Positions 1,687 to 59,395 of a DNA stretch of 64,000 bases are shown piece after piece. The position numbers and the translations under genes are program-made. Source of the stretch: Escherichia coli (GTDB lineage Bacteria; Pseudomonadota; Gammaproteobacteria; Enterobacterales; Enterobacteriaceae); assembly GCF_003019035.1 (NCBI RefSeq), contig NZ_CP027447.1. One strand, 5' to 3'. Every line of letters starts with the position of its first letter. Position 1 is the first letter of the stretch. A model generated the notes under the pieces. It was not told the DNA's origin. It saw only the letters and a program-made list of their open reading frames with translations, and did not search any database.

Positions 1687-2496
1687 ATGAGATCGTTAGC
1701 TGATTTCGAATTTAATAAAGCGCCATTGTGCGAAGGCATGATCCTGGCTTGCGAAGCAATCCGCCGCGATTTTCCCTCGCAAGATGTTTACGACGAACTG
1801 GAGCGTCTCGTTAGTCTGGCGAAGGAAGAAATCAGCCAGCTTCTGCCTTTAGAAGAACAGCTGGAAAAACTGATCGCGCTGTTTTACGGCGACTGGGGAT
1901 TTAAAGCCTCACGCGGCGTTTATCGTCTTTCCGATGCATTATGGCTGGACCAGGTGTTAAAGAATCGACAGGGCAGTGCGGTATCATTAGGTGCCGTTTT
2001 ATTATGGGTCGCGAATCGTCTCGATTTGCCGCTGCTGCCGGTGATTTTCCCTACGCAGCTGATATTGCGCATTGAATGTCCGGATGGCGAAATTTGGCTG
2101 ATTAATCCTTTTAACGGTGAATCGTTAAGTGAACATATGCTGGATGTGTGGTTAAAGGGAAATATCAGCCCGTCGGCGGAACTGTTTTATGAAGACCTTG
2201 ATGAAGCTGATAACATTGAGGTAATCCGCAAATTGCTGGATACACTCAAAGCCTCGTTGATGGAAGAAAATCAGATGGAGCTGGCGCTACGTACCAGCGA
2301 AGCTTTATTACAATTTAACCCGGAAGATCCCTATGAAATTCGCGATCGCGGGTTGATTTATGCGCAACTGGATTGCGAACACGTTGCGTTGAACGATTTA
2401 AGTTATTTCGTTGAACAGTGTCCGGAAGACCCGATCAGCGAAATGATCCGTGCGCAAATAAATAACATCGCGCATAAACATATTGTGCTGCATTAA
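1687..2496 (+). CDS. ychA: SirB1/YchA family protein (transglutaminase-like/TPR)
   Basis: 269-aa ORF directly after ychQ; conserved synteny prfA-prmC-ychQ-ychA-kdsA. Confidence 0.85.
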   Translation: MRSLADFEFNKAPLCEGMILACEAIRRDFPSQDVYDELERLVSLAKEEISQLLPLEEQLEKLIALFYGDWGFKASRGVYRLSDALWLDQVLKNRQGSAVSLGAVLLWVANRLDLPLLPVIFPTQLILRIECPDGEIWLINPFNGESLSEHMLDVWLKGNISPSAELFYEDLDEADNIEVIRKLLDTLKASLMEENQMELALRTSEALLQFNPEDPYEIRDRGLIYAQLDCEHVALNDLSYFVEQCPEDPISEMIRAQINNIAHKHIVLH

Positions 2497-2522: not shown

Positions 2523-3386
<864 letters not shown>

Positions 3387-3534: not shown

Positions 3535-3642
3535 TTACTTCCGGTTACGCCACCAGCTGACAATCGCTGCGGTAATAATTCCCGCCAGGATCGGTGCTGC
3601 CAGGTCGTACCAGAAAGTCATGGCAAACTGCGTGAGCGTCAT
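3535..3642 (-). CDS. ldr: Ldr-family type I toxin peptide (35 aa)
   Basis: Hand translation of minus strand: MTLTQFAMTFWYDLAAPILAGIITAAIVSWWRNRK*; matches the LdrA/B/C small hydrophobic toxin; located between kdsA and chaA where ldr/rdl copies reside in E. coli; not in ORF track because under 60 aa. Confidence 0.85.
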   Translation of the reverse strand: MTLTQFAMTFWYDLAAPILAGIITAAIVSWWRNRK

Positions 3643-5147: not shown

Positions 5148-5416
5148 TATGGTTATCCCTTTGCAGATGAATTTATCGAAAATGTAAAAAATAGGTAGGA
5201 AAAATAACAGAAAGTGTCTGGATATCGGTAACATTTTACGAATTTTTACCCCGCTGTCGATTTTTTACTCATCGGGCCATAAAAATAAGCAATGCGTTTA
5301 GACAATGTTTGTTTTAGCACTTCTTAAGAAGAGTCTGACATGAAAATTCTTATGTTTTGGCAAGAGTAGATGTTGTTGACCACACTTAATGTTCAACTTT
5401 GTAAAAGGAGTCAACG

Positions 5417-19884: not shown

Positions 19885-19969
<85 letters not shown>

Positions 19970-20002
19970 AGGGGTAATTCAAATTCTGAGGTAATGCTTG
20001 AG

Positions 20003-20087
<85 letters not shown>

Positions 20088-20138
20088 CACGGGGTAATGC
20101 TTTTTACTGGCCTGCTCCCTTATCGGGAAGCGGGGCGC

Positions 20139-24975: not shown

Positions 24976-25389
24976 TTATTGCTTGATCAGGAAATCGTCG
25001 AGGGATTTACCTTGCTCATCCATTGCTTTTTTGATTACAGCTGGAGTACGGCCCTGGCCAGTCCAGGTTTTAGTTTCGCCGTTTTCGTCAACGTAGCTAT
25101 ATTTTGCCGGACGCTGAGCACGTTTAGCTTTGGTGCCAGATTTAACGGCAGCAAGGCTATTCAGCAGTTCGTTCGGGTCAATACCGTCAGCGATCAGCAT
25201 TTCGCGATATTGCTGCAGTTTACGAGTGCGCTCTTCAACTTCAGCAGCAGCCGCGCTTTCTTCTTCGCGACGTTCGTTAACAACAACTTCTAATTTTTCC
25301 AGCATTTCTTCCAGCGTTTCAAGTGTACATTCTCTTGCCTGCGCACGAAGAGTACGGATGTTGTTCAGAATTTTAAGTGCTTCGCTCAT
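24976..25389 (-). CDS. hns: nucleoid-associated protein H-NS
   Basis: 137-aa [44 protein letters not shown]...; C-terminal DNA-binding motif TWTGQGRTP. Confidence 0.97.
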
Positions 25390-25992
25390 TGTAGTAATCT
25401 CAAACTTATATTGGGGTGGTTTGTTGAGGTAATAATAGAGCCTTAAATTCAGTTGTGCAATAGCCAGGAATGTAAGGAATTCAAAATTGTTCTTTATTTT
25501 GTGCCGCCAATAAATATCTTTTCATAAAATTAGCCAGAAAAGACGCGGCATATAGCCCTATTTGCACCGATGATTTCGCAGCACGTGAGGTTAAAACTTC
25601 CTGATTCATGTCACATTTTATGGGGAGATTATCGTAGGCTGACGACCTTTCAGTCTTCTGTATTAGTCGTGTTTACGAGAATTCCCTATTAAGCGAATGA
25701 TGAAAAGTAGAACAGTCGCAATAAGAGCAGGGACTTAGTATTGCACTATCTCCAGGAGGTCAACAGAGGGCTATTACTTGCGCAACAGGTTAAAGATTGT
25801 GAATAGTTACCAGCAGTCATTTACCCGCTTATAACAAGCGAGGCAGTTGTAATGATAGCTCAGAAGGATTATGCAAGGCTTCGTAAGGGAGAACGCATAT
25901 ACCACTTCTGTGCATACTGTTGAGCTGTAAAACTGACGAATTATGATAAACTCCAGCCAACTTTAATTCATATCATTGAGGGCCTGTGGCTG

Positions 25993-26610
25993 ATGGCACA
26001 GCTATATTTCTACTATTCCGCAATGAATGCGGGTAAGTCTACAGCATTGTTGCAATCTTCATACAATTACCAGGAACGCGGCATGCGCACTGTCGTATAT
26101 ACGGCAGAAATTGATGATCGCTTTGGTGCCGGGAAAGTCAGCTCGCGTATAGGTTTGTCATCGCCTGCAAAATTATTTAACCAAAATTCATCATTATTTG
26201 ATGAGATTCGTGCGGAACATGAACAGCAGGCAATTCATTGCGTACTGGTTGATGAATGCCAGTTTTTAACCAGACAACAAGTATATGAATTATCGGAGGT
26301 TGTCGATCAACTCGATATACCCGTACTTTGTTATGGTTTACGTACCGATTTTCGAGGTGAGTTATTTATTGGCAGCCAATACTTACTGGCATGGTCCGAC
26401 AAACTGGTTGAATTAAAAACCATCTGTTTTTGTGGCCGCAAAGCAAGCATGGTGCTGCGTCTTGATCAAGCAGGCAGACCTTATAACGAAGGTGAGCAGG
26501 TGGTTATTGGTGGTAATGAACGCTACGTTTCTGTATGCCGTAAACACTATAAAGAAGCGTTAGAAGTCGGCTCATTAACGGCTATTCAGGAAAGGCATCG
26601 CCACGATTAA
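25993..26610 (+). CDS. tdk: thymidine kinase
   Basis: 205-aa ORF; P-loop SAMNAGKST and zinc-ribbon cysteines. Confidence 0.95.
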
Positions 26611-26912
26611 TAAGAATTTCTTTACTGACAGGGTGAGCAGGGCGCTTTTATCCTGTCAGTTCGTTTTACTCACTTCATCCGGTGTATATACCCTTCTCGA
26701 CAGTTCTTTAACGCCACTATACCCCTCACAGAGCGCTTATACACCGACATTGACTTGTAACCTGTAAAGTACAATATCGCTGTGTGTAGGCGTTATACAT
26801 CGCCGTAAATATGATGAAGGCAAATGCTGTCGATTTATGGGAAAGTTGCTTTGGGTAAAACAAAAAAACGGCCCCAGAAGGGACCGTTTATGTTGCCAGA
26901 CAGCGCTACTGA

Positions 26913-29588
26913 TTAAGCGGATTTCTTCGCTTTTTTCTCAGCTTTAGCCGGAGCGGCTTCTTTTTTCGCTGCAGTTTCACCTTCTACATAATCACGACCG
27001 TAGTAGGTATCCAGCAGAATCTGTTTCAGCTCGGAGATCAGTGGGTAACGCGGGTTAGCGCCGGTGCACTGGTCATCGAATGCATCTTCAGACAGTTTAT
27101 CCACATTCGCCAGGAAGTCTGCTTCCTGAACGCCAGCTTCACGGATAGATTTCGGAATACCCAGTTCAGCTTTCAGCGTTTCCAGCCATGCCAGCAGTTT
27201 CTCGATCTTAGCAGCAGTACGGTCGCCCGGTGCGCTCAGACCCAGGTGGTCAGCAATTTCAGCATAACGACGGCGAGCTTGCGGACGGTCATACTGGCTG
27301 AATGCAGTCTGCTTGGTCGGGTTGTCGTTCGCGTTGTAGCGAATAACGTTACAAATCAGCAGGGCGTTTGCCAGACCGTGCGGAATATGGAACTGGGAAC
27401 CCAGTTTGTGCGCCATTGAGTGACATACACCCAGGAAGGCGTTCGCAAACGCGATACCCGCGATAGTTGCTGCACTGTGAACACGTTCACGCGCTACCGG
27501 ATTTTTAGATCCTTCGTGGTAGGACGCTGGCAGATATTCTTTCAGCAGTTTCAGCGCCTGCAGAGCCTGACCATCAGAGAACTCAGATGCCAGTACAGAA
27601 ACATAAGCTTCCATGGCGTGAGTTACTGCGTCCAGACCACCGAAAGCACACAGGGACTTCGGCATGTCCATAACCAGGTTGGCATCGACAATCGCCATAT
27701 CCGGGGTCAGCGCATAGTCTGCCAGCGGATATTTCTGACCAGTAGCGTCGTCAGTTACAACCGCAAACGGAGTGACTTCAGAACCTGTACCAGAAGTGGT
27801 GGTGACAGCGATCATTTTCGCTTTCACGCCCATTTTCGGGAACTTGTAGATACGTTTACGGATATCCATAAAGCGCAGCGCCAGTTCTTCGAAGTGAGTT
27901 TCCGGATGTTCGTACATGACCCACATGATCTTCGCGGCGTCCATCGGGGAACCACCACCCAGCGCGATAATCACGTCTGGTTTGAAGGAGTTTGCCAGTT
28001 CTGCACCTTTACGAACGATGCTCAGGGTCGGGTCAGCTTCTACTTCGAAGAAGACTTCAGTTTCAACGCCTGCTGCTTTCAGTACGGAAGTGATCTGATC
28101 AGCATAACCATTGTTGAACAGGAAGCGGTCAGTCACGATGAGCGCACGTTTGTGGCCATCAGTAATCACTTCATCCAGCGCGATTGGCAGAGAGCCACGG
28201 CGGAAGTAGATAGATTTCGGAAGTTTGTGCCACAACATGTTTTCAGCTCGCTTAGCAACGGTTTTCTTGTTGATCAGGTGTTTCGGACCAACGTTTTCAG
28301 AGATGGAGTTACCACCCCAGGAACCACAACCCAGAGTCAGGGAAGGTGCGAGTTTGAAGTTATACAGGTCACCGATACCACCCTGAGAAGCCGGGGTGTT
28401 AATCAGGATACGAGCCGTTTTCATTTTCTGACCGAAGTAAGAAACGCGAGCCGGTTGGTTATCCTGGTCAGTGTACAGGCAAGAGGTATGACCGATACCG
28501 CCCATAGCAACCAGTTTCTCTGCTTTTTCTACCGCGTCTTCGAAATCTTTAGCGCGGTACATTGCCAGAGTCGGGGACAGTTTTTCATGTGCGAACGGTT
28601 CGCTTTCATCAACAACGGTCACTTCACCGATCAGAATCTTGGTGTTTTCTGGTACAGAGAAGCCTGCCAGTTCAGCAATTTTATAGGCTGGCTGACCAAC
28701 GATAGCCGCGTTCAGCGCACCGTTTTTCAGGATAACGTCCTGAACAGCTTTCAGCTCTTTACCCTGCAACAGATAGCCGCCGTGGGTTGCGAAACGTTCA
28801 CGTACTGCGTCATAAACAGAGTCAACAACAACAACAGACTGTTCAGAAGCACAGATTACGCCGTTGTCGAAGGTTTTGGACATCAGTACAGATGCAACTG
28901 CACGTTTGATATCAGCAGTTTCATCGATAACAACTGGCGTGTTACCCGCGCCTACACCGATAGCTGGTTTACCGGAGCTGTATGCGGCTTTAACCATGCC
29001 CGGACCACCAGTCGCGAGGATCAGGTTGATGTCTGGGTGGTGCATCAGTGCGTTAGACAGTTCAACAGAAGGTTGATCGATCCAGCCGATCAGATCTTTC
29101 GGAGCACCGGCAGCGATAGCAGCCTGCAGAACGATATCAGCTGCTTTGTTGGTTGCATCTTTTGCACGCGGGTGCGGGGAGAAGATAATGGCGTTACGGG
29201 TCTTCAGGCTGATCAGCGATTTGAAGATAGCAGTTGAAGTCGGGTTAGTGGTCGGAACGATACCGCAAATAATACCGATTGGTTCAGCGATAGTGATGGT
29301 ACCAAAAGTGTCGTCTTCAGACAGAACACCACAGGTTTTTTCATCTTTATAGGCGTTGTAGATATATTCAGAAGCAAAGTGGTTTTTGATCACTTTATCT
29401 TCGACGATACCCATGCCGGATTCGGCAACGGCCATTTTCGCGAGTGGGATTCGAGCATCTGCAGCAGCCAGAGCGGCGGCGCGGAAGATTTTGTCTACTT
29501 GCTCTTGAGTGAAACTGGCATATTCACGCTGGGCTTTTTTTACACGCTCTACGAGTGCGTTAAGTTCAGCGACATTAGTAACAGCCAT
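26913..29588 (-). CDS. adhE: bifunctional acetaldehyde-CoA/alcohol dehydrogenase
   Basis: 891-aa [45 protein letters not shown]...; N-terminal aldehyde DH and C-terminal Fe-ADH domains. Confidence 0.97.
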
Positions 29589-30064
29589 AATGCTCTCCTG
29601 ATAATGTTAAACTTTTTTAGTAAATCATCTGCTCGAATACGAGAGTATAGTCAGTGCGGTGATGATTTGCTTAACCGATGAAAATCAAAAGCTTACTCGC
29701 GCTCACACTCACTGTGATTTACTAAAAGAGTTTAAACATTAGAGTTATTATCTCTAATGCGTCACTTCCAGGTGGCGTAAGCAAGATTACTCACTTCTGG
29801 GTACTGATTACGTGATCCAAATCAAATTTTTGCAAAGCTGACACCTTTCAGCATCGCTTTTCGCCATTATAGCTAACAGTTAATAAATTGTAGTATGATT
29901 TGTTGGCTACATTATCATGTTTTGCACAACCAGATAACAATAACGAATGATAGCAATTTTAAGTAGTTAGGAGGTGAAAAATGCTGTCAAAAGGCGTATT
30001 GTCAGCGCGTCTTTTTAACCTTATTTATGGCTAACATTATCCGGCTTTTGCTTCGGAGCTAACC

Positions 30065-30712
30065 GTGATTCAGACCCTTTTTGATTTTCCCGTTTACTTC
30101 AAATTTTTCATCGGGTTATTTGCGCTGGTCAACCCGGTAGGGATTATTCCCGTCTTTATCAGCATGACCAGTTATCAGACAGCGGCAGCGCGAAACAAAA
30201 CTAACCTTACAGCCAACCTGTCTGTGGCCATTATCTTGTGGATCTCGCTTTTTCTCGGCGACACGATTCTGCAACTTTTTGGTATATCAATTGATTCGTT
30301 CCGTATCGCCGGGGGCATCCTGGTGGTGACGATAGCGATGTCGATGATCAGCGGCAAGCTTGGCGAGGATAAACAGAACAAGCAAGAAAAATCAGAAACC
30401 GCGGTACGTGAAAGCATTGGTGTGGTGCCACTGGCGTTGCCGTTGATGGCGGGGCCAGGGGCGATCAGTTCTACCATCGTCTGGGGTACGCGTTATCACA
30501 GCATTAGCTATCTGTTTGGTTTCTTTGTGGCTATTGCATTGTTCGCTTTATGTTGCTGGGGATTGTTCCGCATGGCACCGTGGCTGGTACGGGTTTTACG
30601 CCAAACCGGCATCAACGTGATCACGCGTATTATGGGGCTATTGCTGATGGCATTGGGGATTGAATTTATCGTTACTGGTATTAAGGGGATTTTCCCCGGC
30701 CTGCTTAATTAA
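30065..30712 (+). CDS. ychE: MarC-family inner-membrane protein YchE
   Basis: 215-aa hydrophobic ORF MIQTLFDFPVYFKFFIGLFALVNPVGIIPVFI... Confidence 0.9.
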   Translation: MIQTLFDFPVYFKFFIGLFALVNPVGIIPVFISMTSYQTAAARNKTNLTANLSVAIILWISLFLGDTILQLFGISIDSFRIAGGILVVTIAMSMISGKLGEDKQNKQEKSETAVRESIGVVPLALPLMAGPGAISSTIVWGTRYHSISYLFGFFVAIALFALCCWGLFRMAPWLVRVLRQTGINVITRIMGLLLMALGIEFIVTGIKGIFPGLLN

Positions 30713-31449
30713 TTCCTTTCAAATGAAACGGAGCTGTCATGCTCCGTTTACTTCGTCATTATTTTTACTTTGTTCCCGCGCAGTTATCAAAAGCAAAAGG
30801 AATGGGTGAAAATATTCTTCTCAAATTACAGTTGGTTATAAGGATTTCCTTAACTGCTTCTCCTCACCATCATGTTATTTTCGCCACATCATAATCCTGG
30901 GCTTGCTGAAGAATAATTGAAATGATATTAGTAATTCCACTGCCTTTGGTAGAGGAAAGTGCTAAATAATAATCAATTGTTAAATTATTGTGCATTTCAC
31001 TACTGGAACTGTAATCAGAAAAGAGAGACATGCTTAACCAATCTCTATTTAATTGAATTAAAAGATGTTTGTTAAGACATGGATGCAAGCTATAGATTCT
31101 GATACGGTCAATAAAAGAGAATTGCTTAACAATTTTGCAAAATGTATTGGCGAGTAAGAACCGCATTTGGTACTTTCCGGGCAACCGCCAGACGATTCTT
31201 TATTGGTAATGAGAATAATTAACAATTAAAGAGCGTCGCGAAAGAATAATGTGTCTCGACAGGGGAGACACAGTACGAATCGACATAAGGTGATCGTCTG
31301 AATCACCAGAATAAATAAAGTCGGTGATAGTAATACGTAACGATAAAGTAACCTGACAGCAGAAAGTCTCCGAGCCTGTGCAGGGTCCCAATCCGGGATT
31401 ACACATGCTGGTTAATACCAGTAATTATAATGAGGGAGTCCAAAAAACA

Positions 31450-43931: not shown

Positions 43932-44125
43932 GCACTCTCCTTGAGTTTTATGCAGGTGTTAATTAGCGGGCAATTGTACCCTGGTTAAGCCTCGGGTGGC
44001 AGCATCAGGTCTTGTATGGAAAAGCATATCTTTGTAAAGCGGAGGTAATAGCTGGCCTTCAGGCGTGGGCAAACCGCGGCAAGTGGCGAGCGAGTTAATA
44101 TTTGCGTAGCGAAAATATTTAAAAA

Positions 44126-45537: not shown

Positions 45538-45934
45538 TCAGGCTTTATTTTCGGCTTTCTTATTTACGTTATTAAGGGCCAGATCAGTCAGTTTGATGTC
45601 GGTGGCCTTTTCTTCTTCAAGAGTTTCTTTCAGAAGCTTAGCTGCTTTACGGTAACCTAATTGTTCAGCCAGCGTCGCTAATGTCCCGTAACTGGCAATC
45701 TCATAATGCTCGACTTTCTGTGCTGCGGCAATCAGTGCGACATCACGCACTTCGTTTTTCTCGGTACTTTCGATGACCTCATTAGCTTCTTCAATAAGAC
45801 CTTCCATTGCCACACAATTTTTCGTTTGATGTTGCTCTTGCGAGTTTTGCCAGTGCACGGGTTAATTGTTTTTCTGCACTGTAGGTATCTGAAAGCAGGT
45901 GAATAAATACATCTTCAATGGTCTTCATATTCAT
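45538..45934 (-). pseudogene. yciF: yciF (DUF892 paralog of yciE) apparently disrupted by a frameshifting internal deletion
   Basis: N-terminal segment [40 protein letters not shown] (start 45934) runs into stop after CGNGRSY; C-terminal segment ...[43 protein letters not shown]... continues in the +1 frame to 45538; joined product ~30 residues shorter than paralog YciE across the same aligned region. Confidence 0.6.
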
Positions 45935-58054: not shown

Positions 58055-59077
58055 ATGATTAGATATAGTGGAATATTTCTATCGCTGTTAATGCTTTCAG
58101 GTTGTGCAACCGAAGCATTGAAGAATGAACAAGCTGAAACTGTTATTACTGCGGGTAACAAGGCGGTTGCGGCGAATGCAAGTTTCTTTAAACAATACTA
58201 TGCTTCTCGTGAAAATTTCCTTGTTAATTTTTATGCGACTAATCCGGATTGTGCATTGCGACCTGATTATGAAACGATTATGGAAAATAATACTAATAAA
58301 GAGTCCTTATGTATGCAATCAGAGAAAGGGGACAAAACATCGTATAAAGACGTTACTAAAGTTCAATTGGCAACAACAGAAAAACAAAAGCTACTGGCTT
58401 CACTTGAGGTCGTTAACAGTATGAGCTCCTATGTGGAGTTGTTGACGGTGGATATGGATGTTGACGATAGTAAACAAATTATATTACTTAATCAGGCGCT
58501 CGATCATGCAAACAACGCCCAAAAACTACTTGGACTTTCAGAAGGTGAAGAACTGACTAAGTCAGCTGTAGCTGTTAAAGATTTAGTTCAATATTTCAAT
58601 GGATTATATAAAGAGAAGATTAAATCAGAAAATGTTGGTAAAACGGTAGGTAGTGACTGGCCACGACTTCAAAGAAATTTACAAGATTTACTTGAAGATA
58701 TAGCAACGAAACAGCAGCAAATGGATCGGAATAATTTTGCGAACATCAGTAATAATTTTTATTACTATAATAAGGCCCGGGAAAATACTAAAAATATAGA
58801 ATTTAAGACATTAAAGAGCAGGCAGGAATTTTTGAGTGCAGTAATTAATCTTAATGAAAGCAGATTGCGTTCATCTGATCCGGCGGCTCCAGCAATACAA
58901 GCTATTAATGCCTTCATGGATAAAGGAAATCATCTACAAGATTTATACTCTAATAAATCTCTTTCAAAAGCGGATTTAGAGCGTAGGAATGAGATCCTGC
59001 GTGCTCAAGTTATTAGTGGTCTTCAGGCGTCAGAGGAGCTGGCAAAACTTCTTATTGCCAGCGGAGTTATGTTATAG
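58055..59077 (+). CDS. predicted lipoprotein of unknown function (340 aa)
   Basis: ATG preceded by AAGAGGTG RBS; N-terminus MIRYSGIFLSLLMLSGC has a signal peptide with LSGC lipobox (Ala at +2, not Asp); remainder Asn/Lys/Gln/Glu-rich, likely helical; no family recognisable by eye. Confidence 0.7.
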   Translation: MIRYSGIFLSLLMLSGCATEALKNEQAETVITAGNKAVAANASFFKQYYASRENFLVNFYATNPDCALRPDYETIMENNTNKESLCMQSEKGDKTSYKDVTKVQLATTEKQKLLASLEVVNSMSSYVELLTVDMDVDDSKQIILLNQALDHANNAQKLLGLSEGEELTKSAVAVKDLVQYFNGLYKEKIKSENVGKTVGSDWPRLQRNLQDLLEDIATKQQQMDRNNFANISNNFYYYNKARENTKNIEFKTLKSRQEFLSAVINLNESRLRSSDPAAPAIQAINAFMDKGNHLQDLYSNKSLSKADLERRNEILRAQVISGLQASEELAKLLIASGVML

Positions 59078-59086
59078 GAGGTCATT

Positions 59087-59395
59087 ATGAACGATGTGCA
59101 AAATCGACGAATACTGGCATTGCTCAATATGCTGTACTATGCCTTAGGAAACCGAACAACTTGCGATATATGTCACAAATATTTTATTCTGGTTTTGTCG
59201 GTAATGAATAATCTGACAATTAATTATGGCTCGCAAACGTCACCAGAACTGACTGGTATTAGTTATGAAGATGCTAATGATTTGATCACTGAATTAATAC
59301 TGTTTATTGAAGACGTCAATGCGGATAATGACATGGAATATCCCGCACACTTGAATAAAATTCAAGCTCTTCTTAATTTTGCCGTGGCTAATTAA
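59087..59395 (+). CDS. small acidic cytoplasmic protein of unknown function (102 aa)
   Basis: ATG 5 nt after AGGAGG RBS that overlaps the stop of the preceding lipoprotein gene (translational coupling); no signal peptide; CDICH motif and acidic C-terminal half. Confidence 0.65.
   Translation: MNDVQNRRILALLNMLYYALGNRTTCDICHKYFILVLSVMNNLTINYGSQTSPELTGISYEDANDLITELILFIEDVNADNDMEYPAHLNKIQALLNFAVAN

Follow-up and report, generated by a model that had tools for sequence, protein, structure and literature searches.

The window analyzed here, by which we mean the whole 64,000-nucleotide stretch of Escherichia coli DNA (contig NZ_CP027447.1 of assembly GCF_003019035.1), carries tdk and adhE as convergent, adjacent genes. 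Both were taken from the list of open reading frames (ORFs) and identified with NCBIfam models, which also identified galU, hns, and ychE as further neighbors. The features of the interval, in window coordinates, are as follows:

25993..26610, + strand: tdk, thymidine kinase (205 aa); full-length match to the NCBIfam equivalog model NF003298 (470.5 bits); its stop codon is the left edge of the gap.
26611..26912, unstranded: tdk-adhE convergent intergenic spacer in the allele without an insertion sequence (IS); 302 bp, from the ORF coordinates.
26624..26660, + strand: tdk intrinsic terminator-like hairpin, ACTGACAGG...CCTGTCAGT followed by TTCGTTTT; predicted RNA fold of -20.5 kcal/mol, z = -3.48.
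26866..26889, - strand: putative adhE intrinsic terminator and IS4-family target palindrome; 10-bp stem AAACGGTCCC / GGGGCCGTTT, TTCT loop, T7 run.
26872..26882, unstranded: single unduplicated copy of CCCCAGAAGGG, from junction alignments and target-duplication reconstruction.
26913..29588, - strand: adhE, bifunctional acetaldehyde-CoA/alcohol dehydrogenase (891 aa); match to the NCBIfam equivalog model NF010378 (1514 bits); its stop codon is the right edge of the gap.

Because tdk ends at 26610 and adhE at 26913, the gap is exactly 302 bp long, which bears out the figure of ~300 bp between the two stop codons given in a preliminary description of this DNA. The left-hand gene is also annotated as tdk in the human commensal E. 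coli SCU-301 (NZ_CP051751.1), with which the window shares 100.0% identity over 24.5 kb. SCU-301 belongs to phylogroup F, ST967 (PMC11251922); the window therefore represents a non-K-12 lineage, as the preliminary description had proposed.

That description had also given the K-12 interval as about 1 kb longer and as carrying an IS-related pseudogene, and comparison confirmed both points. The K-12 MG1655 genes end at 1294144 (tdk) and 1295446 (adhE), leaving a gap (1294145-1295445) of 1301 bp rather than the same ~300-bp interval; it is annotated with "insertion sequence:ISZ" and the pseudogene insZ (b4573). The window spacer aligns with that of K-12 end to end except for a 999-bp insertion in K-12, and this surplus is accounted for by a 989-bp ISZ remnant plus a 10-bp target duplication. 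Thus, the tdk-insZ-adhE interval of K-12 shares its flanking genes, tdk terminator, and spacer with the window, whereas its 1301-bp gap has ISZ inside the adhE hairpin, and the 302-bp gap of the window has that hairpin whole.

Each of the two genes is followed by a hairpin of its own. The tdk hairpin lies directly after the tdk stop codon and has a long stem (ACUGACAGG.../...CCUGUCAGU, then UUCGUUUU), of which the terminator scan caught the inner part. This stem is kept in all four aligned alleles, the sole difference being a G/A change that K-12 shows in the loop. The adhE hairpin (26889..26866) starts 23 bases past the adhE stop codon and comprises 10 pairs, 6 of them GC, in the terminator scan, followed by TTTTTTTG; it folds at -20.6 kcal/mol (z = -3.22) and was also picked up as inverted repeat I3. 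A stable GC-rich stem-loop with a U-tract was therefore found after both stop codons (z = -3.5 for tdk and -3.2 for adhE). Called from folding and pattern scanning only, the two hairpins would act as rho-independent terminators of tdk and adhE, respectively. The preliminary description had proposed a shared hairpin terminator region. Instead, the predicted terminators are separate, one per gene, and stand ~205 bp apart. In this the window resembles other gaps between convergent genes with back-to-back intrinsic terminators, where two stable U-tract hairpins likewise mark the two gene ends. The arrangement is not a single bidirectional terminator shared by both genes. On the + strand, only TTTATG comes after the adhE hairpin.

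The insertion that distinguishes K-12 falls within the second of these hairpins. In the alignment with the window, the K-12 insert is 989 bp between direct copies of CCCAGAAGGG, and its insertion point falls in the adhE terminator hairpin, within the loop and 3' arm; neither the ISZ element, of which the window lacks the whole, nor the duplication of CCCAGAAGGG was found by alignment in the window. The ends of ISZ (CAATGCCG.../...CGGCATTG) resemble that of IS4 (TAATGCCG...), with only ~34 terminal bases of DNA similarity in common between the two elements, and its ORF fragments match Nterm_IS4 and DDE_Tnp_1. ISZ is therefore a degenerate element of the IS4 subgroup. Folding of the K-12 sequence shows the native adhE hairpin to be split. 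A terminator-like hairpin is present inside ISZ itself (K-12 sequence L001, 5329..5354, - strand; AACGGCTTCC...GGGAGCCGTT, then TTCTT). Lying downstream of adhE and ~50 bp into ISZ from the adhE side (5354..5329), it could be a candidate surrogate adhE terminator in K-12.

K-12 is not alone in having an insertion here. The bases of 26872..26882 are duplicated elsewhere around ISZ (10 bp, K-12), around IS4 (11 bp), and around a deleted IS4 (11-12 bp, phylogroup B2), whereas the window has one unduplicated target core and no IS between tdk and adhE. Strain CFSAN061771 has an intact IS4 of 1426 bp in the gap, in plus orientation and with an 11-bp duplication of CCCCAGAAGGG. The B2 strains ATCC 11775 and CFT073 have, at the same position, an IS4 that lacks positions 984-1253, in minus orientation and with an 11-12 bp duplication; ISZ is also in minus orientation. 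Since the sequence of ISZ differs from that of IS4 and the two IS4 forms are oppositely oriented, at least three independent insertions must have occurred within the same 10-12 bp. We counted the four alleles in complete E. coli genomes at a threshold of >=80% query coverage in one joined place, so that the following numbers are estimates rather than the outcome of per-genome inspection:

Empty allele: 2203 of 5423 complete genomes (~41%), the 902-bp query being contiguous.
ISZ allele: 1886 of 5423.
Deleted IS4 allele: 1134 of 5423, in B2 strains such as CFT073.
Intact IS4 allele: 190 of 5423.

Together, the four alleles cover 5413 of the 5423 genomes. The empty allele is the commonest single one and extends to distant backgrounds, e.g., O157:H7 EDL933. 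The compact gap had been presented as if it were distinctive; the census does not uphold this, as the allele is diagnostic of no one lineage. Among the deleted IS4 alleles, E. coli ERP001 shows an adhE-side duplication copy (CCCCATAAGGGG) that differs from the tdk-side copy (CCCCTTCTGGGG), the loop bases TTCT having become ATAA in one of the two. In the literature searched, no paper linking IS4 to tdk-adhE was found, and insZ turned up in gene lists only.

Why the same few bases were entered repeatedly may lie in the target preference of the IS4 subgroup. Elements of this subgroup produce 10-13 bp duplications, and "spectacular apparent insertion specificity" has been noted for the target arms of some of them (PMC2266710). 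For comparison, we rebuilt the target sequences of IS4 copies at four further loci: one downstream of bamD, one inside fiu, the resident K-12 site, and one in a prophage. In each, an A-run and CG(G) precede a GC-rich palindromic core, of which 11-14 bp are duplicated, and (C)CG and a T-run follow it. Across the five independent IS4 sites compared, the adhE terminator has the same form, an A-run and a T-run around a GC-rich palindromic core. As read from these sequences, the IS4 target layout is that of a bidirectional-looking terminator, which the adhE terminator fits. Older work gives the IS4 target consensus as AAA-N20-TTT; the string "AAAN20TTT" was not found in the literature searched. IS4 itself appears to have used the site, judging from the intact copy with its 11-bp duplication in 190 genomes and the deleted copy in 1134. 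The adhE terminator of the window equals the reconstructed preinsertion target of the IS4 (insG) copies found in the gap of other strains, and IS4 is a site-specific E. coli element; the window site holds no IS4 sequence, however, and is thus the target and not the element.

A loose target pattern, AAACG N12-18 CGTTT, was rejected as a predictor of insertion. It has four matches in the window, the galU terminator (24855), the ychE terminator (30726), and one other site being matched as well as the adhE hairpin; the features extracted are therefore insufficient to explain the repeated targeting of that hairpin.

Taken with the allele data, these comparisons make it probable that the adhE hairpin forms a natural transposition hot spot for IS4-family elements, with at least three independent insertions in E. 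coli (ISZ, an old minus-oriented IS4, and a recent plus-oriented one), and suggest that the recurrent insertion is caused by IS4 target preference. With a GC-rich hairpin set between an A-tract and a T-tract, the adhE terminator would be the kind of palindrome that IS4-type transposases choose. In other E. coli lineages, IS4-family elements have entered the hairpin loop and 3' arm, duplicating 10-12 bp, and as a consequence of these insertions the native adhE terminator is split in ~59% of complete E. coli genomes. The window strain would never have been hit at the site; having no insertion, it keeps its native adhE terminator.

We conclude that the 302-bp gap is very probably an unoccupied tdk-adhE spacer with two convergent terminators, into which IS4-family elements inserted in other lineages. 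Because it equals the reconstructed preinsertion target, the empty allele is most likely ancestral. Evidence from outside E. coli was sought by exact matching of the 22-nucleotide empty-site sequence ACGGCCCCAGAAGGGNCCGTTT, a scan that recovered E. whittamii as the only true homologue and did not recover E. albertii, E. fergusonii, and others. In E. whittamii, an intact empty site lies beside adhE (95% identity); the available sequence breaks off 11 bp to its left, so that only the adhE side is visible. With one copy of the target core, no scar, the intact site in E. whittamii, and the distribution of alleles, it is most economical to suppose that the site was never occupied, and we infer that the empty state was not restored by excision.

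The same 22-nucleotide pattern was also seen in three metagenome-assembled genomes (L010, L011, and L013), which were rejected as homologues, having no BLAST similarity to the tdk-adhE region. In L011 it occurs twice (2394..2415 and 2568..2589), 174 bp apart. Since only ~0.1 chance matches are expected, the hairpin sequence may recur elsewhere as a terminator or repeat motif.

A different history would lead to the same compact gap: a former IS4-family element may have been cleanly lost in secondary fashion, either by precise excision over the 11-bp repeats or by recombination importing an empty allele, and both routes would give the clean sequence observed. The near relatives of the window speak for such a loss, in that the next-best matches over 24.5 kb (99.3%) have an intact IS4 in the gap, as does SCU-172, another phylogroup F strain (PMC11251922). 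The spacer is also a mosaic, the window matching CFSAN061771 over the first 190 bp and then showing several clustered differences, which suggests recombination in the region. Nevertheless, we consider secondary loss improbable. The window has no scar, only the single copy of CCCCAGAAGGG, and an intact hairpin, and the empty allele is the commonest (2203 genomes), occurring in distant backgrounds such as O157:H7 EDL933 and also in E. whittamii. By comparison, just 190 genomes have the intact IS4 allele, a rarity that suggests recent acquisition by a sub-lineage and not the ancestral state.

The ~205 bp between the hairpins were treated as plain, nondescript noncoding spacer. That they hide an unannotated functional element (a small RNA, a small protein, or regulatory sites) that the IS-free state keeps beside adhE might be read from mechanical ORFs of 44 and 45 aa and from a few TATAC-containing 10-mers that recur in the spacer, but this idea is largely refuted and highly implausible: an Rfam scan of 25300..30200 at E <= 1 gave no match inside the gap, TATAC-type motifs occur at chance frequency (77 observed versus 84 expected), repeats do not rise above chance and form just short two-copy families, the longest open frames differ between alleles with no ORF kept, no other part of the region has diverged from K-12 as much as the spacer (~91% identity versus 98% in adhE), and every insertion falls to the right of the ~205-bp stretch and leaves it intact.

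On the preferred reading of an unoccupied ancestral site, then, the short gap is an ordinary IS presence/absence polymorphism that genome annotations already contain implicitly. It flags a strain-level difference in IS content and helps to set the window outside K-12. A useful by-product is the near-complete census of the locus (four alleles in 5413 of 5423 complete E. coli genomes), according to which the adhE 3' end of the K-12 reference should not be taken as the default state. With three of the four alleles representing separate IS4-family insertions into the same 10-12 bp, the census also illustrates IS4 site specificity; the repeated insertions into the adhE terminator neatly exemplify that known specificity and do not amount to a new kind of feature. 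If the adhE hairpin is indeed a hot spot, the IS-free allele of the window would offer a natural control for IS effects on adhE 3'-end formation or expression.

Beyond the tdk-adhE interval, three further differences from K-12 named in the preliminary description were recovered by comparison. A single ldr copy is present in the window versus ldrA, ldrB, and ldrC in K-12; this lone gene, encoding an Ldr-family type I toxin, lies between chaA and kdsA (3535..3642, - strand), the interval that holds three tandem ldr/rdl copies in K-12. The short tyrT spacer was likewise verified, tyrT and tyrV being separated by 34 bp versus 209 bp in K-12; these two tRNA-Tyr genes occupy 19885..20088 of the window. 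Finally, the extra rluB-btuR cassette proved to consist of two extra ORFs between rluB and cobO/btuR (58055..59395, + strand; 340 and 102 aa), versus a 39-bp gap in K-12. Both are annotated as hypothetical in SCU-301, and no Pfam or PADLOC match was obtained for either. An IS5 (IS5U) present between ychE and oppA in K-12 is missing from the window, which has in this gap a 98-aa hypothetical ORF (30870..31166, - strand) with no Pfam hit. In the SCU-301 annotation, a YkgJ-family gene fragment lies beside ompW/yciC (window 43959..44048), and a frameshifted ferritin-like gene, by position the equivalent of yciF, lies beside yciE (window 45538..45928).
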